A stretch of DNA of 64,000 nt from a virus. Position numbers and translations under genes: made by a program. Shown in pieces: positions 8,163 to 22,227 of the stretch; position 1 is the stretch's first letter, and each line of letters opens with the position of its first letter. Under the pieces are notes generated by a model. It was not told where the DNA came from, made no database searches, and saw nothing but the letters and a program-made list of their open reading frames with translations. The stretch is taken from the IMG/VR virus record IMGVR_UViG_3300025274_001348, positions 1 through 64,000 of that record; one strand, 5' to 3'.

Positions 8163-8480
8163 ATGGCGACGATGAACGGGATGCCGCGAGTGACGAAGGA
8201 CGCAACGATTGCCGTGATGCACAAGGCAACGACAATCGACATGGCTGAATTCGGGGTTCAAGTCCTCGATGAACTGGACGAGGAGCAACCGGCCTTGTGT
8301 CAGATGCTCACTCACATGATCATGGACCTCGCCTGTCCCGACGAGATGCCCGAGGAATTGAAGCAGTCGAATGCTCTGATCATGACCGTCATCGCCGGAT
8401 GTCTGTTCAAGTCGATCAAGGCACAGATTGAAGCGGAAGAAATGGCAAGTTTGTTTAGTGAAGAGGAGACTGTTGAATGA
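8163..8480 (+). CDS. hypothetical protein, paralog of 5370-5666
   Basis: Visible alignment. Confidence 0.75.
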   Translation: MATMNGMPRVTKDATIAVMHKATTIDMAEFGVQVLDELDEEQPALCQMLTHMIMDLACPDEMPEELKQSNALIMTVIAGCLFKSIKAQIEAEEMASLFSEEETVE

Positions 8481-8653
8481 CACACGTTGGAATTGGTGAT
8501 CGAGTGCTGTTTGACTACCACGGCAAGGCTCGGAGTGGTAGCATCGAGAAGATCGGGAATGGTCCCGCTGGCGTCTACGTCATCATCGCACACGGCGATG
8601 GCTCGCACAAGACGTTCTCACAACCCAAAATCAGTAACCTGCGAAAGGTGTAA
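8477..8653 (+). CDS. 58-aa SH3/WYL-like small protein, paralog of 39733-39954
   Basis: FDYHGKARSG…GNGPAG…KTFSQPKISNL; hand translation. Confidence 0.55.
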   Translation: MTHVGIGDRVLFDYHGKARSGSIEKIGNGPAGVYVIIAHGDGSHKTFSQPKISNLRKV

Positions 8654-8655
8654 AC

Positions 8656-8832
8656 ATGAAGACGACGGTTGCGACATTCGAGTTGGAAAAGGAAACCAAG
8701 AACACGATTCGCTACAGCGAAACGCCGGATGAAGGCGTGGCCCCAGTGGTCAACACGATCTACATCCAGAAGCACGTTCTCGGCAAGACCGCTCCACAGA
8801 ACATCAAGGTGACAATGGAGGAATCTAAATAA
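8656..8832 (+). CDS. 58-aa hypothetical protein (MKTTVATFELEKETKNTIRY…IYIQK…)
   Basis: AAGGTG RBS; hand translation. Confidence 0.65.
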   Translation: MKTTVATFELEKETKNTIRYSETPDEGVAPVVNTIYIQKHVLGKTAPQNIKVTMEESK

Positions 8833-9147
8833 GGCGGGGATTGCAACCCCGTCTAGGGTGGTGACTGAACAATCCCCGGTTATGGGGGGATAAGGTGCGC
8901 GCTGCTGAGTTCCGATAGCCGAATGGTCGAGGAGTTCAGGTAGACGGCAGTCATACAGAACTACCATATCTGTGAGCTTGCGGGCAAAAGTGAATCCCGC
9001 CCACCCGTTATACATACAGCGCTGGCTAAGAACCGGGGCGCCACTATAATACTCGGTGACGCCAGCGCTATCAAACAGTGACTTGGAGTTTCGCCCTTTC
9101 CTCAGTCGCTGGCCCCCGTTCCGGTTCGCCGGTGCGGGGGTTTTTTT
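8832..9147 (+). ncRNA. candidate structured RNA: cloverleaf-like domain 8856-9007, conserved motif hairpin 9018-9069, terminator 9112-9147
   Basis: ORF-free; multiple perfect stems; shares a 36-nt motif with 2171-2206. Confidence 0.65.
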
Positions 9148-9161
9148 ATTGGCGGGGATCG

Positions 9162-9306
9162 GGTGAAACGCGGCGGCGGGTTGTCGCTGGGCAACAACGC
9201 CGCTCGGCGTCAAGAGGAAAGTGGAGGTTTAGGCGATTTTGTGGAAAGTTTTTCTAGGGAATATATTCAAGTTGGGGGTTGACAATAGCCGATAATACTC
9301 TATAAT
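9162..9306 (+). repeat. module-boundary element copy 7 (class A promoter 9279-9306)
   Basis: GGTGAAAC; GCGGCG..GTTGTC/GGCAAC..CGCCGC; GTCAAG; TTGACA-16-TATAAT with GCCGATAA. Confidence 0.8.
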
Positions 9307-9336
9307 GGGGGAGTAACACACACACGAGGGCAAGCA

Positions 9337-10119
9337 ATGTTGAAGTGGTCGAAAGCAAACGCGAAAACGGAACGGTTGAACGAGAGTTGTTGGGCAATTG
9401 CCAAGCACCTTGACGATGGGCGGAAGGTCTACAGTCTCGATCTGTTGTCGGGCTACTCGTGTCCGTTTGCAAAGGCGTGTCTCTCGAAAGCGGTTGTCGG
9501 TGAAAATGGCAAGCGGACAATCAAGGACGGTCCCCACAATGAGTTTCGTTGTTTCTCGGCATCGCAAGAGGTGCAGTACACCAACGTGTACAATCTCCGC
9601 AAACACAATTACGACACCTTGAAGGAAAACCAAGACGACTGGCCGTTGATGTATCAGGAACTGTGGAAGTCGATTCCCCCGGATGCCGGGATTGTTCGGA
9701 TTCATGTTGCAGGGGATTTCTTCAACGAGAATTATCTCCGGGCTTGGATTGAACTGGCTCAAACAACTCCCGACGTGTTGTTCTACGCCTACACCAAAAG
9801 CCTGAAGTATTGGGATGCTCTCAAGAGTGAAGTCCCCGAGAATCTGGTGCTGACGGCGTCGTATGGTGGGCGTGACGACTGGATGATTGATCATGGTGGA
9901 TTCCGATTCGCCAAGGTGGTATTCTCAGAAGCGGAAGCGGAAGAACTCGACTTGATTATCGACCACGATGATTCCCACGCTGCTAATCCAACGTGGCGGG
10001 ATGAGAGTTTCGCACTGTTGATTCACGGGACACAACCGGCGGGATCGGAAGCGGCGACGGCTCTGCGAGAATTGAAGGGTAAAGGTTCTTACTCTAGAAA
10101 ACAAAAGGTGACGGGATGA
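9337..10119 (+). CDS. Gp88-like phage protein (Cys-containing, radical-SAM-related fold)
   Basis: L.SGYSCP.A..C, VRIHVAGDFF and FYAYTKS motifs. Confidence 0.7.
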   Translation: MLKWSKANAKTERLNESCWAIAKHLDDGRKVYSLDLLSGYSCPFAKACLSKAVVGENGKRTIKDGPHNEFRCFSASQEVQYTNVYNLRKHNYDTLKENQDDWPLMYQELWKSIPPDAGIVRIHVAGDFFNENYLRAWIELAQTTPDVLFYAYTKSLKYWDALKSEVPENLVLTASYGGRDDWMIDHGGFRFAKVVFSEAEAEELDLIIDHDDSHAANPTWRDESFALLIHGTQPAGSEAATALRELKGKGSYSRKQKVTG

Positions 10120-10325
10120 TTGAGAGAACGACGATTGTGGCGGTGGATTGCATTCAGTGCAAGGAAACCCAACATATCACAACAAAAACCGAGGATCTCG
10201 ATTCTTGGGAGAATGGCGAACTGATTCAGAACGCCATGCCGTACTTGACGGCTGATGAGCGGGAAGTCCTCATTAGCGGGATTTGCGGGACTTGTTTCGA
10301 CAATATGTTCGCGGGTGACGAATGA
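10116..10325 (+). CDS. small Zn-binding protein (CxxC…CxxC)
   Basis: CIQC, IQNAMPYL, LISGICGTC. Confidence 0.7.
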   Translation: MIERTTIVAVDCIQCKETQHITTKTEDLDSWENGELIQNAMPYLTADEREVLISGICGTCFDNMFAGDE

Positions 10326-10765
10326 TCGACTATACTAAACGGGTTTACGTCTATTGGAATCTCCACCGGAAACTGTGGAGTGTGAGACAATCCGGGCTTA
10401 TCGTAGACCACGCCCACCTGTTGTCGTTGCGGGATTGTAAGTTCCTCGTCGGCAAGGCTGGACAGGCTAGGGTTCGACGCGAGGGAAAGAAAAACGTCCA
10501 CGCTGGCGTGAGCGGCTACCTGCTGGAAGATCCGTGTAGCGTTGACCGAATGGTGTGGAATGGGTTCTACGATAAACAAGTGTGGGTCATGTACAACCCC
10601 TATAAGCACGACACGTTTGTAGAGCGGACTGGCGTGTGTGACGACCAGTATCCGATCCCAGTATATAGAGCCGACTTCGTTGCAATGTACAAAGACAATG
10701 ACCGGGACGCCCCGACAGTAATGGCTCTAGAGCCGGAAGGTGAGCAATGCGTGACATCTTGCTAG
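10322..10765 (+). CDS. conserved phage hypothetical protein
   Basis: VYWNLH…WSVR…KKNVHA…YNPYK motifs. Confidence 0.75.
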   Translation: MIDYTKRVYVYWNLHRKLWSVRQSGLIVDHAHLLSLRDCKFLVGKAGQARVRREGKKNVHAGVSGYLLEDPCSVDRMVWNGFYDKQVWVMYNPYKHDTFVERTGVCDDQYPIPVYRADFVAMYKDNDRDAPTVMALEPEGEQCVTSC

Positions 10766-10845
10766 TGGCAGCGGCGTGGGCTTATGTAATTCTTTACGCC
10801 TTCGAATTGTTTATGCGGTACTGCCCATTGACAGACATTGGGTAA
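10747..10845 (+). CDS. single-TM micropeptide (MRDILLVAAAWAYVILYAFELFMRYCPLTDIG)
   Basis: Its TAA stop lies within GGTAAGAC of element copy 8. Confidence 0.5.
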   Translation: MRDILLVAAAWAYVILYAFELFMRYCPLTDIG

Positions 10846-11013
10846 GACAGGGCGTCGTTGTGGCTCACGCAACCCACGCCGCTGGAGGCGATCTAGGTGT
10901 GCGAGCAAGTAAAAGTCAAGTACAAAATCGGAATCTGGGCGATTTTAAAAAAGATTCTTTTTTGACCAATCGGGGCTAAAGATGCTTGACATATTGTGTC
11001 GATAAACTATAAT
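10841..11013 (+). repeat. module-boundary element copy 8 (class A promoter 10986-11013)
   Basis: GGTAAGAC; GGCGT..GTTGTG/CGCAAC..ACGCC; TTGACA-16-TATAAT with GTCGATAA. Confidence 0.65.
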
Positions 11014-11083
11014 GGAGACATACAGTTGAGTTGGTGAGTGTTTCACCGACAATGAGTTTTGACCGCAGACGGAGACAAGAGAC

Positions 11084-11410
11084 ATGAGTGAGAAGAAGCA
11101 AAGAGCAGAGGCGATTTCGGCCACGGCATTCGTGGAAGCATACGTTAAGGTTCACCAGAACGGCGGCACGATTGCCGACGTTGCCGACGAGTTGGGCCGG
11201 TCTGTTGAGCAGACCCGGAGCAAGAAGAATGCTCTGACTCCCGCATTCGCTGAACGCGGGATCAAGCTGCCGAAGTTGGTTCGGCAAGGTCGCAACGGCA
11301 CGTCCTACGACGAGGCGGCTCAGGTCGCTGGTGACTACCTCGCAAGTCTGATGGCGGGGAGTGACGAGGCCGAGTCCGACGAGTCGGAGTCGGAATTCGC
11401 TTCGGAGTAA
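11084..11410 (+). CDS. putative HTH DNA-binding protein with acidic tail
   Basis: TIADVADELGRS HTH-like segment; GGAG RBS; terminator at 11426-11462. Confidence 0.65.
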   Translation: MSEKKQRAEAISATAFVEAYVKVHQNGGTIADVADELGRSVEQTRSKKNALTPAFAERGIKLPKLVRQGRNGTSYDEAAQVAGDYLASLMAGSDEAESDESESEFASE

Positions 11411-11528
11411 TCATCCGTCGCGGAGGTGGGGTCGCCCTTTATTAGGGCGGCCCTGCTTTTTTCTTGACTTGTCCTGCTACTTATGTTACTATGTAGAAGG
11501 ACAGAAAACTAACTTTTGGAGTGATGAG

Positions 11529-12785
11529 ATGAATGAAAAAATCGAAGCGTATGACGGAGCGAATGAAGAAGGTCAGTGGGTGTTCGACTCACAGGGGGTT
11601 GCCTCTGACGAAGGGTTCGGTCACGTCTCGAAGGACTGGTATCCCAAGACCATCAGCTATGATGAAGGCATGGACCAACTGGAATCGGAGCGAGGTCACC
11701 GGCAGGACTTTCTTGTCCCGATTTCCGATCTGGATTTTGGCATCGAGGACGTGAAGGGGAAACCCCGATTCGTGGTCGTTGTCGAGGACCAGACCTTTGT
11801 TCCTAACAACCATGCTCTCCAACAGATGACAGCAAAGTTGTGCGAGGGCAAGGGAACGGGCTTCACTCGCTGGTTGACCGAGGATCAGGTCAACGCCAAA
11901 GAGGAGTCTCGCTACAAGCGTGACCGGCGGGATGCCGAAGTGATTGATGCCATTATCAGTAATGGCTTCCGTCGCATCCTCGAAGCTAAACCTGATACCA
12001 GTTACAAGATTCGTACCTACGATGATGGTACGATGCGAGCCTTCCTCAGTGAGAAATACGCCGAGGTGGACAATCGCTGGTACTTGGAGCAGATCGAGGA
12101 TATTATCCCGAATGGCCGATTGAGCCACTGGCGGGGTAACGCCGACACCATTTTCGGCAACGTCCTGATTCCCGATACCATCCGTGAGGAAGAAGATTCC
12201 GATTACGGCGGGATGATCTCGATTGGTAACTGCGAGATCGGCAAGAGGAATGTCCTGTCGATGCCAAGCCTGTTCCGTGCAATCTGCATGAACGGTTGCA
12301 TCTGGGGACAAACCAAGGGTACTGAGATTCGTGTTCGCCATATCGGTGATATCGACCTCGAAGATCTTTCCAAGCGGATTCGGAATAACATCGAGACGCA
12401 GATTCCTCTGCTTCCCGCTGGTATCGAGAGACTGCTGGGTGTTCGCCTGATGGAGAACGACGGCGTTCCCATGAAGTCGATCATCGCTGGTGTTGCCGAC
12501 ATGGAGAAGTTGCAGAAGCGTGAAGCGACTGCCGTTCTCGAAGCATGGGTGATGTTTGAATCCAAGACTCCCGGTGAGAACCGGAATCTGTTTGGGGTTG
12601 TGAACAGCGTGACCCGTGCCGGTCAATTCCTTGGGAATGAGAACTGGGTGAAGTTCGATCAGCTTGGTGGAAGGCTGGTCAACTACACGGACAATCAGTG
12701 GGATCGTCTTTGCAACCGCGCAGAGGATTACGACGACACTGATTACAACCGTATCTTCACCAACAAGGCGGTGTTGGCCGCATAA
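11529..12785 (+). CDS. DUF932-family phage/plasmid protein
   Basis: RAFLSEKY..VDN, ISIGNCEIG, FRAICMNG, RVRH.G motifs; promoter TTGACT-17-TACTAT at 11464-11492. Confidence 0.75.
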   Translation: MNEKIEAYDGANEEGQWVFDSQGVASDEGFGHVSKDWYPKTISYDEGMDQLESERGHRQDFLVPISDLDFGIEDVKGKPRFVVVVEDQTFVPNNHALQQMTAKLCEGKGTGFTRWLTEDQVNAKEESRYKRDRRDAEVIDAIISNGFRRILEAKPDTSYKIRTYDDGTMRAFLSEKYAEVDNRWYLEQIEDIIPNGRLSHWRGNADTIFGNVLIPDTIREEEDSDYGGMISIGNCEIGKRNVLSMPSLFRAICMNGCIWGQTKGTEIRVRHIGDIDLEDLSKRIRNNIETQIPLLPAGIERLLGVRLMENDGVPMKSIIAGVADMEKLQKREATAVLEAWVMFESKTPGENRNLFGVVNSVTRAGQFLGNENWVKFDQLGGRLVNYTDNQWDRLCNRAEDYDDTDYNRIFTNKAVLAA

Positions 12786-12795
12786 GGAGGTCAAC

Positions 12796-12885
12796 ATGGA
12801 ACGGTATGTCGGATACGGTATGTTCGCCTTTGGAGTGCTACTGTTTTGGATAGGTTTCAAGAATAGGTGGCGAGAAGAAGACTAG
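12796..12885 (+). CDS. single-TM micropeptide (MERYVGYGMFAFGVLLFWIGFKNRWREED)
   Basis: Perfect AAGGAGG RBS. Confidence 0.7.
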   Translation: MERYVGYGMFAFGVLLFWIGFKNRWREED

Positions 12886-12908
12886 AACCTACTAACTAGC
12901 AACGCGCG

Positions 12909-12943
12909 ACCCGCTCCGGTGCAAGCCGGGGCGGGTTTTTTTT
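12909..12943 (+). terminator. intrinsic terminator
   Basis: ACCCGCTCCGG-TGCAAG-CCGGGGCGGGT plus T-tract. Confidence 0.85.
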
Positions 12944-12977
12944 GTGAAAAAATCGGGGATTGGACTTGACAAGATCG

Positions 12978-13030
12978 GGTAAAACGGGAGGGCAACGGTG
13001 TAGCACGCTAACCGGGCCGCTGCGCCCAAG
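12978..13030 (+). repeat. module-boundary element copy 9 (last; no downstream class A promoter)
   Basis: GATCGGGTAAAAC; CGGT.TAGC/GCTA.ACCG stem; CAAG. Confidence 0.6.
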
Positions 13031-13175
13031 TAGTGAGATCAGGACTGCAACCGAGTAAAATTTTATGTATGCGTGTATAAAAAAAGACCCAACCCGAAAT
13101 GAATCGAGAAGGGCCTATAGTTTTAGGTAGGACGAGTCGGCGTGACTAACCACCCACCGACGTGACCGAGTAAAT

Positions 13176-13523
13176 TTACCTACATAGTCTACGCATAGAG
13201 AATATAGAATACCTAGTCCAACGTGGTCTTTGGTATATACGATATGTACTATGACTCCAGTGGTTACACCTACAATGACAGAAGGGCGGTGCTATATTAT
13301 GTAGAAGCAAGTCAGAGCCGTTTAAGACCCCATACGTTGTCTTCTGTAATACACAGGGGATGTCCACTGTATACCAATATACATGTCCCTTATTGTAGGT
13401 ATTGATGCAGGTGCGGCAGTTCTTGTTTACATAAGTGGGGGGATCTACCAAAACCCACTCACCAGCACCAGCAAGGGCGGGGGAACATAATACAATAGCC
13501 CCCAAAATCAGATTCCTCAACAT
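13176..13523 (-). CDS. putative secreted Cys/Tyr-rich protein
   Basis: N-terminal signal peptide (MLRNLILGAIVLCSPALAGA); AAGGAG RBS on the minus strand; only credible minus-strand gene. Confidence 0.6.
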   Translation of the reverse strand: MLRNLILGAIVLCSPALAGAGEWVLVDPPTYVNKNCRTCINTYNKGHVYWYTVDIPCVLQKTTYGVLNGSDLLLHNIAPPFCHCRCNHWSHSTYRIYQRPRWTRYSIFSMRRLCR

Positions 13524-13908
13524 AGTATTCTCCTTAAAAAGAAACCTTCTGACATATCACGTTAATTATATCGATCCCATACACCGCAGACATGTAATTT
13601 GCTCTCCTGTAGGCTTCTTCTTCAGCAATTTCTCCATCTGAGCAGTTTATCTTACCTGCATTACGTATATTACCATTCGTGTCCACTAACCATAATTTGT
13701 ACATGAGCGCTGACCTCCATTGTTATATTAGAGAGTAATGAAACCCCGGTCAAGAAGAAATCGTTTATTTCCCCCCTGAATTGTCTTTTTCTTACATCTT
13801 ACACCACCATCCCCCTAGTATACCTGCGGATATCTCTATGTCAACCCTTAAAGTTGATTGTGCAGCAATTTTTTCCAAAAAATCCCGCGCGATCCAGACA
13901 AAAACTCA

Positions 13909-13937
13909 TTGACAAGGGACTGAAATGCCGATATAAT
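13909..13937 (+). promoter_or_regulatory. consensus promoter TTGACA-17-TATAAT
   Basis: Perfect consensus; GCCGAT in spacer. Confidence 0.75.
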
Positions 13938-14265
13938 GTATGTATGGACCGAGTTAGCATTTGACCTAAACCCCTATTGGGTATAAAACCCACAATGAAA
14001 CAGCAATATAACACGCTTCTGGGCGCATATTACACTTATTGTGTGAGAACGTGGTATAATATGGTGTAAACTATATTGTCCGACCTGTTTCATGTTCTAT
14101 ATGGTGTTATTATGAATGATAAAGAGAAAAAAGACAATCCTCCTATGACTAATCTGGAGAAAAATACAGAAAAACTAGAGAAAGCAGAGGAGATGATTAT
14201 ATCCGAGGAATTAATCAGATGGATGACTGAAGGCACTAACCCTTACTTATCACCACGTTCAGATT

Positions 14266-14769
14266 GTGGATAAAACAATGCCAGTACCACCTACAGCAGA
14301 CAATCCTCATGGTTGGGGATACATTGAGAAACGAAAAGTGTTGGAACATTACCAACTCAGTCCTAGAATTCAGATCGTAGTTGGAGATGTTATTAAGGTA
14401 AGCAAGGGTTCATACTGGGTTAACAAAGATGGTGTGAAGGTCAGTATGGATACCATGAAGGGGGAGTGGAAGGTTAACGGTATATTTGAAGGGGTGGATG
14501 GATTAGAGATGGATATAGTCCATTGTTGGCCGGGAGGTTTATTTGGGTCAACTTCCACTATTAGAATTACTGGGGATGAATACCCTAGCCCAATTGTAGA
14601 TGTCATAATAAGACGACCATACAAGATCAGACTGGCTGCTCCTAAGTTCAAGAGAAGGAGGAGGAAAAATAAGTTTGATAAACCCGCACCTAGGAAGGTT
14701 GAAAAGATAGAAGAAGATATTGACTGGGACGCTATTAAAAACATTGTGGGAGATATTGAAGATGAGTGA
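14266..14769 (+). CDS. hypothetical protein (ends IEDE*)
   Basis: 167 aa ORF. Confidence 0.7.
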   Translation: MDKTMPVPPTADNPHGWGYIEKRKVLEHYQLSPRIQIVVGDVIKVSKGSYWVNKDGVKVSMDTMKGEWKVNGIFEGVDGLEMDIVHCWPGGLFGSTSTIRITGDEYPSPIVDVIIRRPYKIRLAAPKFKRRRRKNKFDKPAPRKVEKIEEDIDWDAIKNIVGDIEDE

Positions 14770-14959
14770 TGAACTTACAAGCGAACAGGTGGAAGCTATT
14801 ACTTACGCCTACATGGATGTTAAGGCGGCTAACAAGCTGATGGATGAGGAAGAAAATTGGGGCAACCGCATTCAAGCGGAAGCTGAACTCTATGAGGCTA
14901 CCCTGCAAACCAAGGTTGACTTAGAGAAAGCGTTTCCCTTTTTGATTGAGGAGGTTTAA
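14762..14959 (+). CDS. hypothetical protein (MSDELT…)
   Basis: Starts in the junction repeat. Confidence 0.65.
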   Translation: MSDELTSEQVEAITYAYMDVKAANKLMDEEENWGNRIQAEAELYEATLQTKVDLEKAFPFLIEEV

Positions 14960-14960
14960 G

Positions 14961-15143
14961 ATGAGTAACGCTCCAATGTGTGCATGGTGTGGAGATACGG
15001 GACATAGTTTATCCGACTGTCCAATAGCACCTGAACTCGCAGACACGATTGATGCTAACATTGTTGAAGGGTTAAAGATGGTAAAGAGATTTAATAAGAT
15101 GGCAAATGGTGATTTTTGTAGAGAGGACATTGAAGATGAGTAA
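14961..15143 (+). CDS. CCHC zinc-knuckle microprotein
   Basis: CAWCGDTGHSLSDC = CX2CX4HX4C; ends IEDE*. Confidence 0.7.
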   Translation: MSNAPMCAWCGDTGHSLSDCPIAPELADTIDANIVEGLKMVKRFNKMANGDFCREDIEDE

Positions 15144-15285
15144 AACGATGTTGCAAATTGACGGTAAAGACTATATGGTTGTACCTATTGTTGGCGTCGA
15201 GACATTGGTGTACGAAGTGCAGAAGCGTCTGGATGAAGCAGGGTTAAATGTATTGGTAGGCACAAGGAGAATTGAAGATGAGTGA
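15136..15285 (+). CDS. 49-aa hypothetical protein (MSKTMLQ…IEDE*)
   Basis: Begins and ends in junction repeats. Confidence 0.6.
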   Translation: MSKTMLQIDGKDYMVVPIVGVETLVYEVQKRLDEAGLNVLVGTRRIEDE

Positions 15286-15586
15286 AACACTTAACTATGA
15301 AGTAATGACAGTTGATCCCCCATTGGCCGATCAAGTAAAGAGATGGTGTAAGGCATCACCTGAGCATGACGAAAATGATCCGATTTTATTTGAGGAGGAA
15401 GTTCACTTTCTTGATAAGCACTTTATGGTAGTGCAAGTAGTTTCTGCTGAGTCGTCAGCTTGGACTCATGGCATTCTGTTTGATGAACAAGGACGCTCTT
15501 GTGGGAGTACCCCAAGGACAGGAGAATTCCTTGGTACATATCAGGTAGGCAACTATTGTGTAACCGTGGAGAAGGAAGATGGCTGA
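15278..15586 (+). CDS. hypothetical protein
   Basis: Starts in the junction repeat. Confidence 0.65.
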   Translation: MSETLNYEVMTVDPPLADQVKRWCKASPEHDENDPILFEEEVHFLDKHFMVVQVVSAESSAWTHGILFDEQGRSCGSTPRTGEFLGTYQVGNYCVTVEKEDG

Positions 15587-15758
15587 TTTTTGTAAGGAGT
15601 GTAGTGAGAAACATTTTGATGAAGATTTCCGTGACTTTGCCTACATCGTGTCAAAAGAACAATACTTGAGAGGTATGGCAGCTAATGTCTTATGCGAAGG
15701 ATGCGGCTGGATAACAGTTGATAATAATGGTAAAAGATTGGAGATTGAAGATGAGTAA
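15579..15758 (+). CDS. 59-aa Zn-finger-like protein (MADFCKEC…LCEGCG…IEDE*)
   Basis: Hand translation; two CxxC motifs. Confidence 0.65.
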   Translation: MADFCKECSEKHFDEDFRDFAYIVSKEQYLRGMAANVLCEGCGWITVDNNGKRLEIEDE

Positions 15759-15957
15759 CCTACATAACCTACAATGGTATGAGATTCCCTGTAGTTGGGA
15801 AGTTTATGGAACTATTGAGGTTGCGGCTAGTAGCCTCGATGCTGCGATTGAAAAGGTGGAGGATGAGGGATTTCCTTTGCCTAGCAGGAGTAGCTATGTT
15901 GATGGTAGTTTTCAAGTTGACCGCGAAATTGCAGAGGATATAAACAATGAGGCTTAA
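15751..15957 (+). CDS. hypothetical protein
   Basis: Starts in the junction repeat. Confidence 0.65.
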   Translation: MSNLHNLQWYEIPCSWEVYGTIEVAASSLDAAIEKVEDEGFPLPSRSSYVDGSFQVDREIAEDINNEA

Positions 15958-16132
15958 GGACGTACAGGAATTTGGTAAGAAATTCAACGTAGTAGTTGAA
16001 AAGCAGGATTACCGGGATGGGGATGTAAGGTATAGCTATAGTTTATATAGCAACAACCTGTTTGTTGAAGCCCCGGCTAGAAACTTGAACGAATGTATGC
16101 AAATTATTACGGAGGAGTTTTCTAATGGCTAA
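15947..16132 (+). CDS. hypothetical protein
   Basis: Overlapping operon ORF. Confidence 0.6.
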   Translation: MRLKDVQEFGKKFNVVVEKQDYRDGDVRYSYSLYSNNLFVEAPARNLNECMQIITEEFSNG

Positions 16133-16349
16133 GTCTAATGTTGATAGGTACGTTAAGGTTGTTCGTAGGTTTGACAGTAACGGAAAATACTACTTCACAA
16201 CGGTACTCCATAGTGAGAACCCTGATGATAACCCGAAGCTCAGGACTCATAAGCAGTTCAACCTGAGCTATGAAACTGGTGACAGGGCGCAAGCCGAGCT
16301 TTATGCATATAAGCTCGCTAAGTGTCTGGAGTGTAGAGTGGTAGCATGA
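16125..16349 (+). CDS. hypothetical protein
   Basis: GGAGG RBS. Confidence 0.6.
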   Translation: MAKSNVDRYVKVVRRFDSNGKYYFTTVLHSENPDDNPKLRTHKQFNLSYETGDRAQAELYAYKLAKCLECRVVA

Positions 16350-16516
16350 TAATATATCTCGACCAAGACCCACGATTTTATCACGGTGGCTATCCTGAAT
16401 CTGGAACTACTGGTTATGATGGACCGGGATGGTACATCTGGGATCATAAGGGAGTGGTCGGGCCTTTTGACAGTGAGGAAGAAGCAAACAGGAGATTTGA
16501 AGATGGAACCGATTGA
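16346..16516 (+). CDS. 56-aa hypothetical protein (…GWYIWD…GPFDSEEEA…)
   Basis: Hand translation; ATGA overlap. Confidence 0.6.
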   Translation: MIIYLDQDPRFYHGGYPESGTTGYDGPGWYIWDHKGVVGPFDSEEEANRRFEDGTD

Positions 16517-16640
16517 TTACAATGATGATGTTAACCAAGAAGACCCTGTTGATTTAACTTCGGAAGAATGGTCCGAGTTTTACCATAAGTTGGATGATTA
16601 TGAGGACTACCTTGACCACGATATGTCAATGAACTACTAG
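16503..16640 (+). CDS. small acidic protein
   Basis: Starts at junction variant TTGAAGATGG. Confidence 0.55.
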   Translation: MEPIDYNDDVNQEDPVDLTSEEWSEFYHKLDDYEDYLDHDMSMNY

Positions 16641-16649
16641 GAGATAATA

Positions 16650-16913
16650 ATGGCTGAATATAGTAACGAAAAGATGGTGGAGTTGGCTGAGTATGTTGTT
16701 GAGTCTATGGATCAGGATCAGTTAGTGGAAATGGCTTATCAGTATATCATAGAAGGATACGAGGTAAACGAAGAAGGGTTCCATGAAGACTGGCACACTT
16801 ACTTCGGTCTTATGGGTTATAATGAAGAAGATATTAAACCTGATACTAAGAGTCACCCTGACTTGAGGTTGTTTAGGCATGAAGATGGGTACAAGGAGAT
16901 GAACAATGAGTAA
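16650..16913 (+). CDS. acidic hypothetical protein
   Basis: GGAG RBS. Confidence 0.65.
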   Translation: MAEYSNEKMVELAEYVVESMDQDQLVEMAYQYIIEGYEVNEEGFHEDWHTYFGLMGYNEEDIKPDTKSHPDLRLFRHEDGYKEMNNE

Positions 16914-17199
16914 TGAAGAACAACAAAAAGATATGCTTAATGGACTCTCTATTTTATACGGGCAGTTTGCTAGGCTTATTCACGAAGCAGATAAGCTAGA
17001 TATGTGGAATGTTGAATCTGAAAATTTCAAATCAATATGTAAGTCCATCGGGGCCTCTACTTGGGATGTTATAAGAGTGATTCAAGACGCAGATCATGTT
17101 GTCCACGCTTACACTAGTGCTGAAATGACAGATGCTTTGCAGATTAATCAAGATCAAAATGAGTGTGCTAATCAGGAGTCCAAGGATGCACAAGAATGA
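16906..17199 (+). CDS. hypothetical protein
   Basis: Operon ORF. Confidence 0.6.
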   Translation: MSNEEQQKDMLNGLSILYGQFARLIHEADKLDMWNVESENFKSICKSIGASTWDVIRVIQDADHVVHAYTSAEMTDALQINQDQNECANQESKDAQE

Positions 17200-17416
17200 A
17201 GACTGGAAGCACGACGCTAATAAGTTAGCCGAGGAGCTACTTGAACTCGCCGTTGAGTTAGTTAAGCAGTCTAATAAGCCACATAAAGACTATCATGATA
17301 AGATACAGGATGAGCTTGCTGATGTGTCATACAGGCTCAACAACATGATAGAGTGGTATGACACAAAAGCTATCGCACAACGAATGGTCGATAAGTGGGG
17401 AGATAAGGATGGGTAA
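17186..17416 (+). CDS. MazG-like NTP pyrophosphohydrolase
   Basis: KLAEELLEL…IQDELADV motif. Confidence 0.55.
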   Translation: MHKNEDWKHDANKLAEELLELAVELVKQSNKPHKDYHDKIQDELADVSYRLNNMIEWYDTKAIAQRMVDKWGDKDG

Positions 17417-17576
17417 ACTATACAAGAATTGGTTTGTGCATAATATGTTCGCACATCCATTGAGTGAAGTAGTCTATTGGATTACAAGACCTCTTGGAAG
17501 GAAGGAGTCTGAGGATATTTCTGGATGGATTCATGATGTTACTATTCCTAGTGATAGTGATGTTGGGAGGGGTTGA
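17409..17576 (+). CDS. hypothetical protein (WFVHNMFAHPL…WIHDVT)
   Basis: Operon ORF. Confidence 0.6.
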   Translation: MGKLYKNWFVHNMFAHPLSEVVYWITRPLGRKESEDISGWIHDVTIPSDSDVGRG

Positions 17577-17578
17577 AG

Positions 17579-17755
17579 ATGAGTGACACTCCAATGTGTA
17601 CATGGTGTGCAAGTACGGAACATACTTTAGTTGACTGTCCGATAGCACCTAAACCGGGGATAGATTTTGTTTTTGATGATGCTGCACATGCTGAAGGGTT
17701 GAATTTGGTAAATAGATTTAGGGAGATGGAAAAGGAGATTGAAGATGAGCGTTGA
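17579..17755 (+). CDS. CCHC zinc-knuckle microprotein, paralog of 14961-15143
   Basis: CTWCASTEHTLVDCPIAP. Confidence 0.7.
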   Translation: MSDTPMCTWCASTEHTLVDCPIAPKPGIDFVFDDAAHAEGLNLVNRFREMEKEIEDER

Positions 17756-18020
17756 TGCTTATGATACCAAGATTACGCTGAAGTCTATTGACAAACTAAT
17801 CTGTGAGGCTCTGCAAGAAATTGCACCTAATGAAAGCACCACAGTAGAAGCATACGAAAAAGCTACTACGCCTACAAGGAAGGCTGTTGTAGCTCTTAAG
17901 GACGCTCTAGTTTTTGTCAAGCAGATTCGAGAAAAGTATGCTCATGTTGAATGTCCACGGATAGGATTCTCAGATGAAGATTATAATGAAATGCAAGGCG
18001 CTGATGATAACCGTCCATAA
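17745..18020 (+). CDS. hypothetical protein
   Basis: Starts in junction variant. Confidence 0.6.
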   Translation: MSVDAYDTKITLKSIDKLICEALQEIAPNESTTVEAYEKATTPTRKAVVALKDALVFVKQIREKYAHVECPRIGFSDEDYNEMQGADDNRP

Positions 18021-18142
18021 AGGAAGAAGGCTAATGCTACAAGAACTTATAGACCTGCCTAACTGGATGATAGCAGCGATAGTAGTAGTGGGTATCTTTT
18101 CACTAACTGCCGATTGGCAGGACTGGTTTATGGGAGATTAAC

Positions 18143-19111
18143 ATGATGATGCTTAATGGTAATGTGTTAGAGAACTTTAAGTCGTACACCCATAAAGGAA
18201 TCTACCACATCATCTTCGACCATATGAAAAGACCCTACAACTTTATCGACACTCAAACTCTCGAAGAATTAGGGACGCTAATTAGTGTGGTCGAAAAAGG
18301 AAATTACAAGGGTGTTGTATTCAGTAGCAACAAGTCAACATTTATAGTGGGCGCAAACATCAAAATTTTTGTCACGGCACATGATGCACCTGATGAAACA
18401 ATAAACGGATTCTTAAAAGATGGGCAAGATTTATTCAACAGGATTGAAGACTTACCTATACCTACCTGCTCGATAATCAAGGGGACGACGATGGGTGGTG
18501 GGTTAGAACTAGCTTTAGCCTGTACGACTAGACTTTTAGTCAAAGATCCTATTCCCGAAGACCCAGAGTATACCACCATGCAACTTACCAAGCTGGCACT
18601 ACCAGAGGTTAAGCTAGGTATACTGCCATCATGGGGTGGAACTACCAGATTACCTCGAATGATCTACCCTACAAAGGCCATTGAACTTATTTGTACGGGC
18701 AGGAATGTAAAACAAAAAGAGGCATTGAAAATTGGTCTGGTCGATGGTATAGTAGAGTATCCCAAGGCGTTGGATGCGGCCTATGAACTTATCTACGATC
18801 TCAGTGATAAAGATATGTTGAAGTGGGCTACTATCAGGAACAAGAAGGTTGGTCCTACTAGAATGAGCAAACTTAGAGCCAGTGTGACTTATCCAATAGT
18901 TAAGCGTACCATTGGCAATAAGCAGAAGAAGATGTTTGGTGATCCTAACAAGTACCCCTCTCCATACAAAGCCTTGGAGGTATTAAATAAAACTAGGACT
19001 ATGAATAGGGATGAATCGTTGGAAATGGAGCGTAAGGCTTTTATCCCACTGGTTAGGAGCGATGAATGCAGGGAATTAGTGCAGAAGTTTCTTAATGGAG
19101 AAAGAGGATGA
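18143..19111 (+). CDS. enoyl-CoA hydratase/isomerase (N-terminal half of FadB/FadJ-type multifunctional enzyme)
   Basis: FIVGANI, GGGLELALAC, LPEVKLGILP.WGGT.RLPR motifs. Confidence 0.9.
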   Translation: MMMLNGNVLENFKSYTHKGIYHIIFDHMKRPYNFIDTQTLEELGTLISVVEKGNYKGVVFSSNKSTFIVGANIKIFVTAHDAPDETINGFLKDGQDLFNRIEDLPIPTCSIIKGTTMGGGLELALACTTRLLVKDPIPEDPEYTTMQLTKLALPEVKLGILPSWGGTTRLPRMIYPTKAIELICTGRNVKQKEALKIGLVDGIVEYPKALDAAYELIYDLSDKDMLKWATIRNKKVGPTRMSKLRASVTYPIVKRTIGNKQKKMFGDPNKYPSPYKALEVLNKTRTMNRDESLEMERKAFIPLVRSDECRELVQKFLNGERG

Positions 19112-19296
19112 AGCAACTTAAAGAAGAACACATGGTTGGTTACTTTAGGTCTATCGCCCTCACTAATAACTTCATCCGTGACAGGATGAAAGAAGTAAAG
19201 AAAGGTAGACCTCTGTGCGGGTGCGGAGCGTGTCACGAATGTTACTATGTTTACTTGTTAGACAAGTTAACACCTATGAAGAGCTTGAAGGAGTAA
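19108..19296 (+). CDS. small Cys-rich protein
   Basis: LCGCGACHEC. Confidence 0.55.
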   Translation: MKQLKEEHMVGYFRSIALTNNFIRDRMKEVKKGRPLCGCGACHECYYVYLLDKLTPMKSLKE

Positions 19297-19299
19297 GAG

Positions 19300-19920
19300 A
19301 TGCATAAACTGATCTTAGACAGACTAGACAAAGAATTAATCAAGGAAGTGCAGCCATCGTTTAACGATCTACCGCACACGGGTCATGCGGATAGTGAATT
19401 TAGACTCAGGCGTTATTCAGTAATTGATTTTCTTGGTACGCCAGTGGGTGAGTCCACATTTGTTCAATCATCCGACTACAATAAGTATCAAGGCGATGTG
19501 CTTAGAGATTTTGAGCCAATTGAAGATTCAGTAGTAAATAGTACATGCTTTAGAAAGATGTTGGGGCTATTCAGACACGCTGGCGAACTAAGTCTAGAAG
19601 AAATAGATGTTCATCAGATGAGAGTCACTGTGCCTAAAAGTATGCCTGCTGCTGAACTATCTCCAGAGGGTCCACATCAAGACGGTTTTGATTGCATTGG
19701 AATCTTCTCCATTGACAGGCGTAATATATGTGGTGGTGAATTACTGGTTCTTAACGATAAAGACAGTCACCCATTCTGGTCTTTTGTAATGAAGCCCGGT
19801 CAGGTTGTTGTTATAGATGATAGAGAACTATGGCACGACGGCAATCGTATTGCAAGAGATGTCGAGGGGATCGAAGAAAATTACATGGATGTTTTTGTGC
19901 TAACAGCCAATAGAGATTAG
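19300..19920 (+). CDS. 2OG-Fe(II) dioxygenase family protein
   Basis: VHQMR, SPEGPHQDG (HxD), distal WH, D.FVLT. Confidence 0.75.
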   Translation: MHKLILDRLDKELIKEVQPSFNDLPHTGHADSEFRLRRYSVIDFLGTPVGESTFVQSSDYNKYQGDVLRDFEPIEDSVVNSTCFRKMLGLFRHAGELSLEEIDVHQMRVTVPKSMPAAELSPEGPHQDGFDCIGIFSIDRRNICGGELLVLNDKDSHPFWSFVMKPGQVVVIDDRELWHDGNRIARDVEGIEENYMDVFVLTANRD

Positions 19921-19921
19921 C

Positions 19922-20383
19922 ATGACGGAAGCTCTACAACATATTTATAACGACGCTGGACGTAAATATATCCAGCCCAATGAAAGAAATGATTGTACCG
20001 TAAGGGCTTTAGCCATCTCTACTGATAGAGGTTATAATGTAGCTCACAATTTCCTTAAGGGTCGTGGTCGTAAGTGTAGAAAATCGTTTTTCTTTCCCAA
20101 GAAACGCTCTGATGATTGTGCGTTGGGACATGAGTTTATTTGGCGATCCTTTTCCCTCGTTAAAGGACAAAAAAGAATGAGTCCTGAGCGGTTTGCTATT
20201 AAGTTTCCAAAAGGGGTTTATATCTGTAAAACAGTGAAGCATGTTTATGCCGTAGTGAATGGAGTCATAAATGATGCCTACAAGATTGATTGGTATGATG
20301 GTCGATGCGTTTATGGCTGCTGGCAAGTAACAAATCTAAATCCCGACGTAGACGACGGGTGGGAAAACGAGGGAGGACAATGA
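19922..20383 (+). CDS. conserved phage hypothetical protein
   Basis: DCTVRALAI…HVYAVVNGVIND. Confidence 0.7.
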   Translation: MTEALQHIYNDAGRKYIQPNERNDCTVRALAISTDRGYNVAHNFLKGRGRKCRKSFFFPKKRSDDCALGHEFIWRSFSLVKGQKRMSPERFAIKFPKGVYICKTVKHVYAVVNGVINDAYKIDWYDGRCVYGCWQVTNLNPDVDDGWENEGGQ

Positions 20384-22227
20384 GTAAGTCTTTTGCTGAA
20401 ACTGCTATGGAGTTAAGCGGCAAGACCGCAGCAGAGTCTACCAGTATAGGAAAGGTAGACATGGCAGACGATCAGGTAGAGGAACTGTTTGATGATAAGC
20501 ACCAAACCAAGAACAGTCCAGCATATAAAGCTGTATGGGACCGGGAGTTCCCCACCAGAGACTTCTTTGAGTTTGATTTCTACAGACCTAATTCTGTTAT
20601 GCTGGATAACTGTCTTGATATTGTAAAAAAGTTCAAGGCAGACGATATGCTGTATACATGCGAAGACAAGTTAAGCAGAGAGGTGATTCAAGCATTGGCT
20701 AACAGTGGCTATTACGGCTTACTGGTTCCATTACCAGATAAGCCAGCCCTGTCTTTCTCTGAGTTTTCATCGTTCCTGACGAAGATGGCAAGTATTGAAC
20801 CCAGTATTGCTGGCATGTGTTCAATTCATGGTTGTATAGGTTCTGTAGATCCCATTAGAACATTTGGAAATGAGTATCAAAAGGAGAAGTATTTACCGGG
20901 ACTATCTGACGGAACCTTTTTGTCTGCTTTTGCTCTGACCGAGCCTTGTGCCGGATCGGACTTGACAGCGTTGAAGACGTGTGCTAAAATAGATGGCGAC
21001 GATTATGTTTTGAATGGCACTAAACTGTTCATTACAAATGTTCATTACGGTGGACTTGTTTCTGTTGTATGTCTCATAGAGAATAAGCCTCAAGTATTAC
21101 TAGTAGAGGTTCCTAGTGGAGATACCGATACATTCAAGATTGGTCACTATAAAATCCACGCATTGACTAGGTTAAATAATAACTCTTTAATCTTCACGAA
21201 CCATCGTGTACCAAAGGAAAACCTAATCCGGTTGCACAAAGGAGACGGGCTAACCGTAGCCTATCATGGGCTAAACTTAGGCAGGATTTCCCTATGTGCA
21301 AATGCGTCTGGTTGTATGAAGACAATGCTGGCCTCTATGATTCCTTGGGGTCAGTATCGACAAACATATGGTCAACCAATTATGCACAGAGAACTGGTAC
21401 AAGAGCGTATTGGTAGGCTGGCTGGCTATATTCTTTCATCAGATGCTCTGGTAGCTTGGTGTTCAGGATTGATTGATAAGGGCTACAGGGGTGAGCTAGA
21501 ATGCATAATAGCAAAGACTTTTGGTTCTGAATGTCAGAAGGAGGCTGCAATTGATCTATGTATGAAAACTCATGGGGGGAGGTCGTTCTTGGGTGGACAT
21601 ATAATCGGTGATAATATTCATGATCTCTTGGCTCCACTTATCTATGAGGGCGAAGGGGATATGTTGAACATGGCTTTCTTCAAGAGCCTAGTTAAAGAAC
21701 ACGGCAAAACCTTTTTTGAACCTGTCGGACAACTGATGTCTAATCTTGGAAAGAAAAGTCCATCCCCTATGGATGTAATCAGAAATCACAAGACTTTTAC
21801 TCCATACCTCAACTGGATGATAAGGGAAGTGTTCCTACCCAAGAGTGGTATTAGACCTATAGGATTTAATGAAGATCTAGTTAAGCACGCGAACTTTGCA
21901 ATCAATGGGTTGCAAAAGTCTGGTCGGGAGATTAGTGCATTAATGCGAAAGCATCAACTACGATTAGCTGATAGACAATGCAGGATGTCTATATTGTCCA
22001 GAAAGATTCAGAATCTTACGACCATGATGGCAACGGTGTGTTATGCTTTTGCTAAGGCTAACCTGCTAACTGCACGAATAGCAGATGTGTCTTGTGAGAA
22101 TTTAAGATGTAAGATTACGGGAAGGCATCCAACTGACTTACAGATTAGAAAAAGCGTATCTCTCGGTGAAAAATTGTGTTGCGATCAAGTAAGTCAAAAG
22201 TCTATCCTTATGAAATACGAAATATGA
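20380..22227 (+). CDS. acyl-CoA dehydrogenase
   Basis: AFALTEP.AGSD, LNGTKLFITN, GRSF..G, IYEGEG motifs. Confidence 0.9.
   Translation: MSKSFAETAMELSGKTAAESTSIGKVDMADDQVEELFDDKHQTKNSPAYKAVWDREFPTRDFFEFDFYRPNSVMLDNCLDIVKKFKADDMLYTCEDKLSREVIQALANSGYYGLLVPLPDKPALSFSEFSSFLTKMASIEPSIAGMCSIHGCIGSVDPIRTFGNEYQKEKYLPGLSDGTFLSAFALTEPCAGSDLTALKTCAKIDGDDYVLNGTKLFITNVHYGGLVSVVCLIENKPQVLLVEVPSGDTDTFKIGHYKIHALTRLNNNSLIFTNHRVPKENLIRLHKGDGLTVAYHGLNLGRISLCANASGCMKTMLASMIPWGQYRQTYGQPIMHRELVQERIGRLAGYILSSDALVAWCSGLIDKGYRGELECIIAKTFGSECQKEAAIDLCMKTHGGRSFLGGHIIGDNIHDLLAPLIYEGEGDMLNMAFFKSLVKEHGKTFFEPVGQLMSNLGKKSPSPMDVIRNHKTFTPYLNWMIREVFLPKSGIRPIGFNEDLVKHANFAINGLQKSGREISALMRKHQLRLADRQCRMSILSRKIQNLTTMMATVCYAFAKANLLTARIADVSCENLRCKITGRHPTDLQIRKSVSLGEKLCCDQVSQKSILMKYEI

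Follow-up and report, generated by a model that had tools for sequence, protein, structure and literature searches.

Results

A chain of overlapping micro-genes behind a common promoter

The window analysed here is a 64,000-nucleotide stretch of IMG/VR virus record IMGVR_UViG_3300025274_001348 (positions 1 to 64,000), in which about 18 overlapping micro-genes form a 3-kb chain on the + strand (Table 1). The genome that hosts the chain is that of a large (about 160 kb) uncultured marine phage with its own replication genes. The promoter 5′ of the chain is the only site with 12/12 matches in the 8 kb that were scanned (12500-20500). Eight promoter-like sites were found on the + strand of this region, none of which overlaps any motif copy, and no + strand terminator-like site was detected between 12937 and 19444. 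The chain is probably one operon and would be expressed early. The head gene g1 had no match in Pfam or PHROG searches, and the other chain proteins gave no informative match in Pfam, PHROG or PDB.

Table 1. Coordinates of the promoter, genes and junctions of the micro-gene chain in the window
Feature	Position	Strand	Description
Promoter	13909..13937	+	sigma-70-type, TTGACA-17-TATAAT, 12/12; 5′ of the micro-gene chain
g1	14278..14769	+	163 aa, chain head; conserved core, variable C-terminal tail leading to GDIEDE* in motif copy 1
Junction core copy 1	14756..14769	+	TTGAAGATGAGTGA; g1 stop, g2 start
g2	14762..14959	+	65 aa
Junction copy 2	14955..14968	+	variant TTTAAGATGAGTAA
g3	14961..15143	+	60 aa, Cys-rich, g16 paralogue
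Junction copy 3	15130..15143	+	TTGAAGATGAGTAA; g3 stop, g4 start
g4	15136..15285	+	49 aa, singleton
Junction copy 4	15272..15285	+	TTGAAGATGAGTGA; g4 stop, g5 start
g5	15278..15586	+	102 aa
Junction g5/g6	15568..15586	+	degenerate, GGAGAAGGAAGATGGCTGA
g6	15579..15758	+	59 aa, phrog_2210, ends IEDE*
Junction copy 5	15745..15758	+	TTGAAGATGAGTAA, full 17-nt consensus; g6 stop, g7 start
g7 to g15	15751..17576	+	nine overlapping or abutting micro-genes, mostly with other junctions
Junction variant g10/g11	16490..16506	+	AGGAGATTTGAAGATGG; g10 ends RFEDGTD*, g11 starts
Junction copy 6	17573..17586	+	TTGAAGATGAGTGA; g15 stops at TGA inside TTGAAG (second frame use)
g16	17579..17755	+	58 aa, motif-to-motif cassette
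Junction copy 7	17739..17755	+	variant TTGAAGATGAGC, lacks the TRA stop
g17	17745..18020	+	91 aa, best-conserved chain gene

A repeated 12-mer marks the gene starts of the chain

The exact 12-mer TTGAAGATGAGT begins at 14756, 15130, 15272, 15745 and 17573 of the window, copies with one mismatch begin at 14955 (TTTAAGATGAGT) and 17739 (TTGAAGATGAGC), all on the + strand, and a shorter variant, TTGAAGATGG, is present at 16497. All of these positions had been listed in an earlier note made from the letters alone, and all were recovered. The seven matches with at most one mismatch compare with a mean of 0.63 and a maximum of 2 in 100 dinucleotide-preserving shuffles, none of which (0/100) reached 7. 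The note had seen no further 12-mer in the window, and a count over the whole 84,542-nt contig agrees, with five forward copies and none in reverse. The 12-mer with its variants is thus found only on the coding strand and only within the chain. The 9-mer TTGAAGATG has a single extra copy on the contig, at 31156, which is likewise a called gene start. Among the 119 genes called on the + strand between 13.9 kb and the end of the contig, nine match the 17-nt consensus GGAGATTGAAGATGAGT at 13 positions or more, and all nine start within 14762-17745. The motif is carried by only about half of the chain's junctions, and a second repeated junction type, AGGAKATRAACAATGAG, occurs at 15935 and 16894 within g7-g15.

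Each copy, as the note had described, provides the ATG of the next gene behind a GGAG/GAGG-type ribosome-binding site and overlaps the end of the previous gene, and seven genes started by the motif have MS as their first residues. The ending IEDE* is shared by four proteins, whose genes close at 14769, 15143, 15285 and 15758, and a fifth (g16) terminates in IEDER*. The four endings had been reported as belonging to unrelated proteins; the endings were found as reported, but not all of the proteins with this kind of ending are unrelated, since g3 (14961-15143) and g16 (17579-17755) are paralogues with 46% identity over 63 aa, the sole related pair in the chain at E<0.01. Because copy 7 lacks the TRA stop, g16 is one codon longer, and a G>T change in copy 2 gives g2 an earlier TAA stop. 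Other metagenome contigs have the canonical G in copy 2 (14957 T>G; X16, X17, X19), and the g5 homologue of a related locus, L006, has the full GGAGATTGAAGATG where the window has the degenerate g5/g6 junction.

The core stops both other reading frames around the next start codon

The functional core of the joint is 14 nt long, TTGAAG-ATG-AGT-RA, lies 3′ of a GGAG(A) ribosome-binding site, and contains the start codon of the downstream gene together with stops for both other reading frames. One stop is the TGA within TTGAAG, 2 nt 5′ of the ATG, and the other is the TRA directly after AGT, which produces an 8-nt overlap. Whichever of the two frames the upstream gene uses, it therefore stops no more than 8 nt from the next start, the arrangement seen in translational coupling. 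At 61 of 102 junctions with 0 or 1 mismatch to the 12-mer, the upstream gene reaches 8 nt into the next one; at 24 it stops 2 nt ahead of the ATG, and the remaining 17 are different. Since a quarter of the motif junctions use the other frame, conservation acts at the nucleotide rather than the protein level; AGT makes up only 19% of this genome's Ser codons. Positions -6 to +8 have a high information content and positions -12 to -7 (GGAGA) a moderate one, with none outside this stretch. Predicted RNA accessibility of the start region was no different between motif junctions and other junctions (0.50 vs 0.48, P = 0.21), and these predictions gave no direct sign of better translation at motif starts. 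Between 13900 and 18200 nine pairs of inverted repeats were found, none of them at any junction, and the core itself is asymmetric.

The joint is shared by related marine phages and conserved in sequence

In 44 related marine loci (261,555 nt) the exact 12-mer occurs 79 times in the forward and never in the reverse orientation, and of 84 exact copies, 79 provide the start of a called gene. Motif starts, one or more, are present in 37 of 45 loci, and a complete 161-kb relative has all three of its exact copies together within 1.8 kb. Across the 102 motif junctions, 32 upstream families are joined to 23 downstream families. Gene order is scrambled between relatives, and gene families recur inside chains, for example g12, which is present twice in locus L129. 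The gene g6 lies within the chain in the window; in L129 and L007 it follows a 2OG-Fe dioxygenase gene and has no motif.

In conserved adjacencies the 12-mer showed 2 mismatches against 17.3 predicted from flank divergence, a test that kept 17 of 35 pairs and left out 18 whose ungapped flanks were more than 40% different and whose 12-mer had 0 to 8 mismatches. The motif evolves about eight times more slowly than its flanks in stable adjacencies, which would fit some direct role in expression and would fit a binding site and a coupling signal equally well. Decayed variants of the motif also exist, and the same adjacency is found both with and without it.

Homology breaks inside the core where neighbours are exchanged

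The earlier note had called for a comparison with relatives for gene gain and loss at the motif, and this comparison revealed single genes that are gained, lost and reordered, with break points inside the motif. Where the downstream gene is common to two loci and the upstream gene is not (305 locus pairs), identity climbs from 0.27 (up to -13) through 0.54 (-12 to -7) to 0.96-0.98 within the motif. Where the upstream gene is common and the downstream gene is not (110 pairs), identity stays high through +6, is 0.51 at +7 and 0.74 at +8, and is at the random level from +9 on. The g16 cassettes of the window and L007 are identical at 168 of 177 nt (95%), exactly from motif to motif, and both flanks are unrelated. 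A cassette with the motif on both sides is also formed by g2, in three genomes and between three different pairs of neighbours, and g17 has 14 upstream neighbour families across 35 related junctions.

The upstream neighbour was kept in 73 of 586 pairs (12.5%) at motif junctions versus 313 of 1011 (31%) at tight non-motif junctions, and in 33/208 versus 312/1005 when g17 was left out, so that turnover is higher at motif junctions by a gap of only about two-fold. Families with a larger share of motif starts also had more diverse upstream neighbours (rho 0.77, 21 families), and neighbour turnover per family gave Mann-Whitney P values of 0.02 and 0.04, which are descriptive, given the phylogenetic relatedness of the loci and the use of g17 to retrieve every metagenome locus. 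At tight junctions without the motif homology likewise breaks at the ATG, and 69% of such pairs differ in neighbour; motif-free junctions therefore shuffle too, and the motif is not required for shuffling. Assembled metagenome contigs of public runs with at least 90% likeness contained variants that differ by single genes, namely a joint between g2 and g17 (14966) and an indel of g15 (17403 to 17576). Variants without g8 or g13 were bounded by other junctions. These assembled contigs showed no circle, split read or intermediate of recombination. Gene indels outside the motif, one of the two conditions under which the earlier note would give up its reading, are found beside break points that fall within it.

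Recombination and regulatory genes in three genomes

Three genomes were searched, the complete relative (G001, 161 kb) and two partial ones (G000 and G002); the window's own contig is only about 56% complete. A UvsX/RecA-like recombinase was found in all three. No tyrosine recombinase (PF00589) was detected in any of the three, with control detection in 14/14 genomes, and no serine recombinase was detected either, with control detection in 12/14; the search that the note had proposed for a recombinase elsewhere in the genome thus came back empty for both classes. RegA (PF01818) was not found in G000, G001 or G002, and T4 RegA scores 247.5 bits in the same search. A T4-type affiliation of the phage was rejected, the gp23-family capsid protein (PF07068) being absent from G000, G001 and G002, with T4 giving two matches and a score of 405 bits. 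An rIIA homologue is present; this gene is not group-defining for T4-type phages.

Discussion

With moderate confidence, we favour the explanation that the repeat is a selected translational-coupling joint which also serves as microhomology when general recombination shuffles single genes in register. The repeat would be a portable stop/start joint. Because the same 14 nt stand at many junctions, crossovers or template switches between copies would exchange, insert or delete whole genes, either within one genome or between co-infecting relatives, and both neighbours would remain in frame and coupled after the exchange. The upstream gene would carry along the ribosome-binding site and the -EDE* tail, and the downstream gene would carry the MS(D/E/N/K) head. 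General recombination is the presumed agent, and selection for translation would maintain the sequence. A length of 14 nt is short for UvsX-type homologous recombination.

Several known systems share part of this design. Integron cassettes (attC/IntI) are single-gene units that lack promoters of their own, share one orientation, are expressed from a common promoter ahead of them and are reordered as units. The units here are likewise promoterless, in one orientation and behind a common promoter, but the three genomes have no IntI-type tyrosine recombinase, the junctions have no attC-like imperfect palindrome, and the joint is 14 nt long, coding, and couples translation. The RegA sites of T4 are loosely conserved and AU-rich. 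Like RegA operators, the core overlaps the start codons of several early genes; unlike them it is exact and purine-rich, and a RegA homologue was not found.

The promoter-early stem-loops (PeSLs) of T4-type phages, in the parts of Arbiol et al. 2010 (PMC2839356) and Comeau et al. 2014 (PMC4122927) that describe them, resemble the joint in that a short regulatory repeat borders small variable genes in a hyperplastic region, ends in a Shine-Dalgarno site and the ATG of the downstream gene, and is the place of indels, replacements and displacements between relatives, with recombination between copies as the proposed agent. Mini-circles were demonstrated for PeSLs, and the mapped crossovers lie between the -10 box and the ATG (PMC2839356, PMC4122927). 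According to the same parts of these papers, however, a PeSL is an intergenic stem-loop terminator plus sigma-70 promoter that makes the cassette its own transcription unit, whereas the joint here has no promoter, stem-loop or intergenic space: the genes overlap by 8 nt or lie 2 nt apart, through a 14-nt dual-coding stop/start overlap within one operon of a non-T4-type phage. Shuffling through the joint, as proposed, would be a variant of PeSL shuffling that works at the level of translation. The Start-Associated Sequences (SAS) of Cluster K mycobacteriophages, as presented in the passages of Pope et al. 2011 devoted to them (PMC3203893), are 13-bp repeats that are also asymmetric, in one orientation, and located at the starts of a subset of non-structural genes of different families. 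They contain the ribosome-binding site, sometimes overlap the upstream stop, and are conserved across subclusters with unknown function. In contrast to the joint, they lie 3-7 bp 5′ of the start and exclude the start codon, they are spread across half of the genome, and those passages draw no link to gene shuffling (PMC3203893). The SAS consensus GGGATAGGAGCCC had no match in the window with up to 2 mismatches allowed.

The motif might instead be an operator only, which we consider possible but rather unlikely. A phage or host factor would bind it, either as RNA, as with SAS or RegA, or as DNA, as with the stoperators of Cluster A mycobacteriophages, and would co-regulate a subset of the early micro-genes; the shuffling would be ordinary mosaicism, and the motif would move with the genes because it is selected. 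The roughly eight-fold slower evolution, the strict strand specificity (84 forward, 0 reverse), the restriction to one operon in the complete relative as well, and the presence at about half of the chain junctions, as expected for a regulated subset, all agree with an operator, as do the shuffling of motif-free junctions and the like properties of SAS repeats in the passages cited (PMC3203893). By itself, however, binding gives no reason for the ribosome-binding site to remain with the upstream gene or for homology to break within the core, and it leaves the higher turnover at motif junctions unaccounted for. The RegA-like repressor that the earlier note had offered is missing from the three genomes, although the same search recovers T4 RegA, and neither g1 nor the other chain proteins yield a candidate binder in Pfam, PHROG or PDB. 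Some unrelated factor could nevertheless bind the motif.

The other proposal of the note, a short integron-like recombination site without attC, stood in part: single genes are gained, lost and reordered at the motif and arrive coupled. A site-specific mechanism, in which a dedicated recombinase would read a site of 12-14 nt and insert or excise circular single-gene cassettes, is the least probable of the readings considered. It would account for the promoterless units in one orientation behind one promoter and for exchange points sharply limited to the core, but neither class of recombinase was found in the three genomes in searches with working controls, the site is asymmetric with no inverted repeat or hairpin at the junctions, site-free junctions shuffle too, and the motif has decayed variants and is present in some instances of an adjacency and missing from others. 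Also very improbable is that the copies are leftovers of serial tandem duplication or of hitch-hiking gene ends, with no present function in expression or recombination. The paralogues g3 and g16 with the motif at both ends and the families that recur within chains point that way, but the chain in the window has only this one paralogous pair, the joint is common to 32 families on the upstream and 23 on the downstream side, and the 12-mer, spelled by fixed, non-preferred codons, far exceeds the adjacent coding sequence in conservation. It is unlikely, finally, that the core is an evolved standard part, a two-frame universal coupler maintained for letting a population of lytic marine phages swap single early genes in register, a recombinase-free, translation-level counterpart of the integron with, possibly, a dedicated activity; an annealing protein or a replisome template-switching step, perhaps encoded in the chain, would be candidates for the latter. 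If it were so, such junction repeats would represent an undescribed and general way in which the accessory genes of phages evolve.

It is an old question how new small genes are tried out in mosaic phage genomes without breaking their neighbours, and the published answers that we located are PeSLs, as promoter-terminator repeats, and illegitimate recombination with selection afterwards. Under the coupling joint that we favour, the exchange point is a dual-coding stop/start joint, and a gene placed between two copies would automatically be in frame, terminated and coupled. For an abundant group of uncultured marine phages, this offers a rule of single-gene shuffling that is concrete and can be tested, and possibly a natural design of a standard connector for synthetic operons. 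The micro-genes between the joints are marked as a rapidly traded pool, probably of host-takeover or anti-defence genes, and the motif resembles a standard connector through which accessory genes of phages are reshuffled.

The motif recurs within one chain of micro-genes

The earlier note had described a repeated 12-mer, TTGAAGATGAGT, at which one micro-gene stops and the next one starts. This observation was confirmed: besides the five exact copies there are two copies with one mismatch and a shorter variant, and every copy provides the ATG of the following gene behind a GGAG-type site while overlapping the end of the preceding gene. In 100 dinucleotide-preserving shuffles the mean was 0.63 matches and none of them reached 7. 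The window comes from a viral contig in IMG/VR (84.5 kb, estimated completeness 56%), of which it makes up the first 64 kb, and the contig-wide count that the note had proposed gave 5 forward and 0 reverse copies of the exact 12-mer. Genes on the + strand were called by a simple script, the calls of which equalled hand curation. Of 119 genes called between 13.9 kb and the end of the contig, the nine best matches to the 17-nt consensus are all at starts within 14762-17745, indicating that the phage does not use the motif as its general start signal.

The chain consists of g1 (163 aa) and about 18 micro-genes, each of 45-102 aa, that overlap or abut. A perfect TTGACA-17-TATAAT promoter, the only one in the 8 kb scanned, precedes it, and no terminator-like site was found on the + strand before 19444; therefore the chain is probably one operon transcribed by the host polymerase, with presumably early timing. 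Profile searches gave no Pfam or PHROG family for most chain proteins. That the linked proteins are unrelated holds for most of the chain but not for g3 and g16, the only paralogues within it.

Searching IMG/VR with g1 returned the relatives L006, L007, L008 and L129-L131, of which L129 sits in a 161-kb record rated complete, and 41 marine loci came from a metagenome scan with g17 alignment. The 44 related loci together span 261,555 nt and contain the exact 12-mer 79 times forward and 0 times in reverse; 79 of the 84 exact copies, including the five of the window, give a called start, and motif starts occur in 37 of 45 loci. The complete relative carries all three of its exact copies inside 1.8 kb, plus four one-mismatch copies, of which one is in the chain and the other three lie outside it, a number close to that of the reversed-pattern control. 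The 14-mer TTGAAGATGAGTGA, tried as a probe of viral contigs, matched at least 120 stretches and was set aside as non-specific at that length, since each of the 80 listed stretches held one match only. DNA search of cultured phage records gave no match to 14200-18200.

The G+C-rich block at the start of the window seems to belong to the phage because the gene calls ahead of g0 are likewise odd in L129.

Features of the window and its contig
Feature	Position	Strand	Remark
Exact copies of TTGAAGATGAGT	14756, 15130, 15272, 15745, 17573	+	
One-mismatch copies of TTGAAGATGAGT	14955, 17739	+	
Shorter motif variant	16497		
Micro-gene chain	14278-18141	+	
Promoter ahead of chain	13909-13937		
g2 junction variant	14957 G>T	+	creates an earlier TAA for g2; canonical G in other metagenome contigs
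g16 junction variant	17750 T>C	+	abolishes TRA; g16 one codon longer
g1 C-terminal tail	14640-14769		~35 aa after a KRRRR stretch
AGGAKATRAACAATGAG junctions (D10)	15935-15951, 16894-16910		g7/g8 and g12/g13 borders; 88% identical
Promoter-like site, 11 of 12	13817-13844	-	faces away from chain
Small ORFs	13176-13704	-	faced by the 11-of-12 site; one with hydrophobic N-terminus
G+C-rich block	1-13000		52-56% G+C vs ~41% in rest of contig; few long ORFs
tRNA-Asp	6185-6258		in first 13 kb
tRNA-Ile	26519-26591		anticodon TAT
tmRNA, phage-encoded	27704-28041		Rfam 132.8 bits; tag peptide AEKQFALAA
Dense metabolic gene set	18143-22227, 24222-25361, 29131-30915, 32329-33813		directly after chain; enoyl-CoA hydratase, 2OG-Fe dioxygenase, acyl-CoA dehydrogenase, IMPDH/GMP-reductase-like, GlmS-like, aldehyde dehydrogenase
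Split DNA polymerase (phrog_405)	76303-78210, 79082-80704 of contig G000 (L181:12303-14210, 15082-16704)		outside window; ORFs match N-terminal and C-terminal halves of profile; ~870 nt between, holding a 180-aa ORF

The core is conserved as nucleotide sequence

When the window is compared with the 44 related loci, the conserved block, TTGAAG ATG AGT RA, spans positions -6 to +8 counted from the ATG. Conservation is moderate for GGAGA at -12 to -7 and absent outside these two elements. The core carries stop codons in both frames that are not used by the downstream gene. The upstream gene stops at the TRA after AGT in 61 of the 102 motif junctions, which makes an 8-nt overlap, and 52 of these 61 genes have an -EDE* tail; in another 24 junctions it stops at the TGA within TTGAAG, 2 nt before the ATG, and other arrangements account for the remaining 17. 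The IEDE tails and MS(D/E/N/K) heads of the proteins are accounted for by this make-up of the core. Since a quarter of the junctions are in the other frame and AGT makes up just 19% of the serine codons in the genome, the conservation of the core acts at the nucleotide level. Start regions at motif junctions and at other junctions did not differ in predicted RNA accessibility.

Several observations concern individual junctions. At L135:658 and L140:334, the exact motif is followed by just a 5-codon ORF (MSKSG*) ahead of the next gene, which may be an emptied junction after cassette loss. The C-terminal tail of g1 is wholly different among homologues. It ends in the motif in the window, in L129 and in some other homologues but not in the rest, and it behaves as a linker exchanged together with the junction. 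A second repeated junction type, AGGAKATRAACAATGAG, lies at two other borders of the chain, and metagenome contig variants without g8 or g13 terminate near junctions of this type.

Genes are exchanged at the motif junctions

The order of the chain genes differs in nearly all loci. The gene g2 has the motif at both of its ends in three genomes, where it lies between g1 and g3, between g16 and g17, and between two other genes; g17 has 14 upstream neighbour families over 35 junctions; and g6 and g22 belong to the chain in only part of the genomes, whereas elsewhere they lie outside it and have no motif. Altogether, the 102 motif junctions connect 32 upstream with 23 downstream families. For 305 locus pairs with a common downstream gene and different upstream genes, identity reached 0.96-0.98 within the motif, against 0.54 over -12 to -7 and 0.27 further upstream, up to -13. 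For 110 pairs with a common upstream gene and different downstream genes, identity was high through +6, then 0.51 at +7 and 0.74 at +8, and random from +9 on. These profiles place the break points inside the core; therefore the ribosome-binding site travels with the upstream gene, and the 14-nt core alone is common to both partners.

The comparison of related phages that the note had called for did reveal single-gene differences and order changes at motif junctions. Between the window and L007, the g16 cassette is identical in 168 of 177 nt from motif to motif, with unrelated sequence on both flanks. Metagenome contigs with at least 90% likeness, read for variants over the contig-covered parts of the window, contained single-gene differences in the form of a g2/g17 joint at 14966 and a g15 indel at 17403-17576, as well as indels of g8 and g13, which lie at other types of junction. 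A joint of 15144-15738 in the metagenome set X16 was left uncounted because one side is just 21 nt, about the repeat length, and joints within g2 (14820 to 14906/14907) and at 14681-14825 are divergent alleles, not junction events.

Within the chain, locus pairs with a gene in common had the same upstream neighbour for it in 73 of 586 cases (12.5%) at motif starts and in 313 of 1011 (31%) at tight motif-free junctions, figures to be taken as descriptive owing to the relatedness of the loci. As g17 is the gene through which the metagenome loci were fetched, the counts were repeated without it and came to 33/208 and 312/1005, with per-family medians of 0.19 and 0.33 (one-sided Mann-Whitney P 0.02 with g17, 0.04 without). 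Over 21 families, the larger the share of motif starts, the more diverse the upstream neighbours (correlation, rho 0.77). Tight junctions without the motif likewise break at the ATG. The motif therefore raises turnover about two-fold, yet is not required for it.

Known systems and rival explanations

The closest mechanism in print is that of the promoter-early stem-loop cassettes (PeSLs) of T4-type phages, which, in the accessible text of PMC2839356 and PMC4122927, are also repeated regulatory sequences that border variable small genes and recombine with one another. PeSLs are intergenic composites of a promoter and a stem-loop, however, and the junctions tested here are not of this make-up. 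Closest in anatomy are the Start-Associated Sequences (SAS) of Cluster K mycobacteriophages, which differ from the motif in sequence and sit upstream of the start; the accessible text of PMC3203893 does not tie them to gene shuffling. Full-text searches of the open literature turned up the PeSL papers, and none of the texts found describes a repeated stop/start overlap at which genes are shuffled.

In its first reading, the earlier note had proposed either an integron-like recombination site at which single-gene cassettes enter already coupled, or an operator for a RegA-like translational repressor; the exchange of coupled genes is supported, whereas the integron-like mechanism and the RegA-like repressor are not. 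The search for the machinery covered three genomes, namely the window's contig, the complete relative and one further relative. None of the three genomes has a tyrosine or a serine recombinase (controls found in 14/14 and 12/14 genomes, respectively) and no inverted repeats were found at the junctions, so an integron-like site-specific system is poorly supported and we regard it as extremely unlikely. All three do have a RecA/UvsX-like recombinase; the identity of the RecA-family protein to its homologues among the best 12 of 278 cultured-phage records stays below 30%. Genes for a helicase, a primase, an exonuclease and a split DNA polymerase are on the contig as well. A T4-like identity, suggested by a homologue of rIIA, was dropped because the search for a gp23-family capsid protein was negative in the complete relative and positive in T4.

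The main rival is that the motif is purely an operator for some factor, which we consider possible but doubtful. RegA was absent from the three genomes, while T4 RegA scored 247 bits in the same search. The g1 protein was rejected as a binding-protein candidate for want of a Pfam or PHROG family; in a PDB profile search it matched just designed repeat proteins over 32 residues, and its Atlas matches score 0.83, under the level of a lead. Passive inheritance of the junctions is very unlikely. At conserved adjacencies, the 12-mer has 2 mismatches against 17.3 predicted from flank divergence in 17 pairs, after dropping 18 of 35 pairs with ungapped flanks more than 40% different (0-8 mismatches in the 12-mer there), indicating that the motif is kept by selection or conversion.

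We lean towards the reading that the motif is a translational-coupling joint which is kept for expression and doubles as microhomology for the in-register exchange of single genes. Repetition of the joint would let its copies serve in this second role, and general recombination or template switching would be the agent of exchange.
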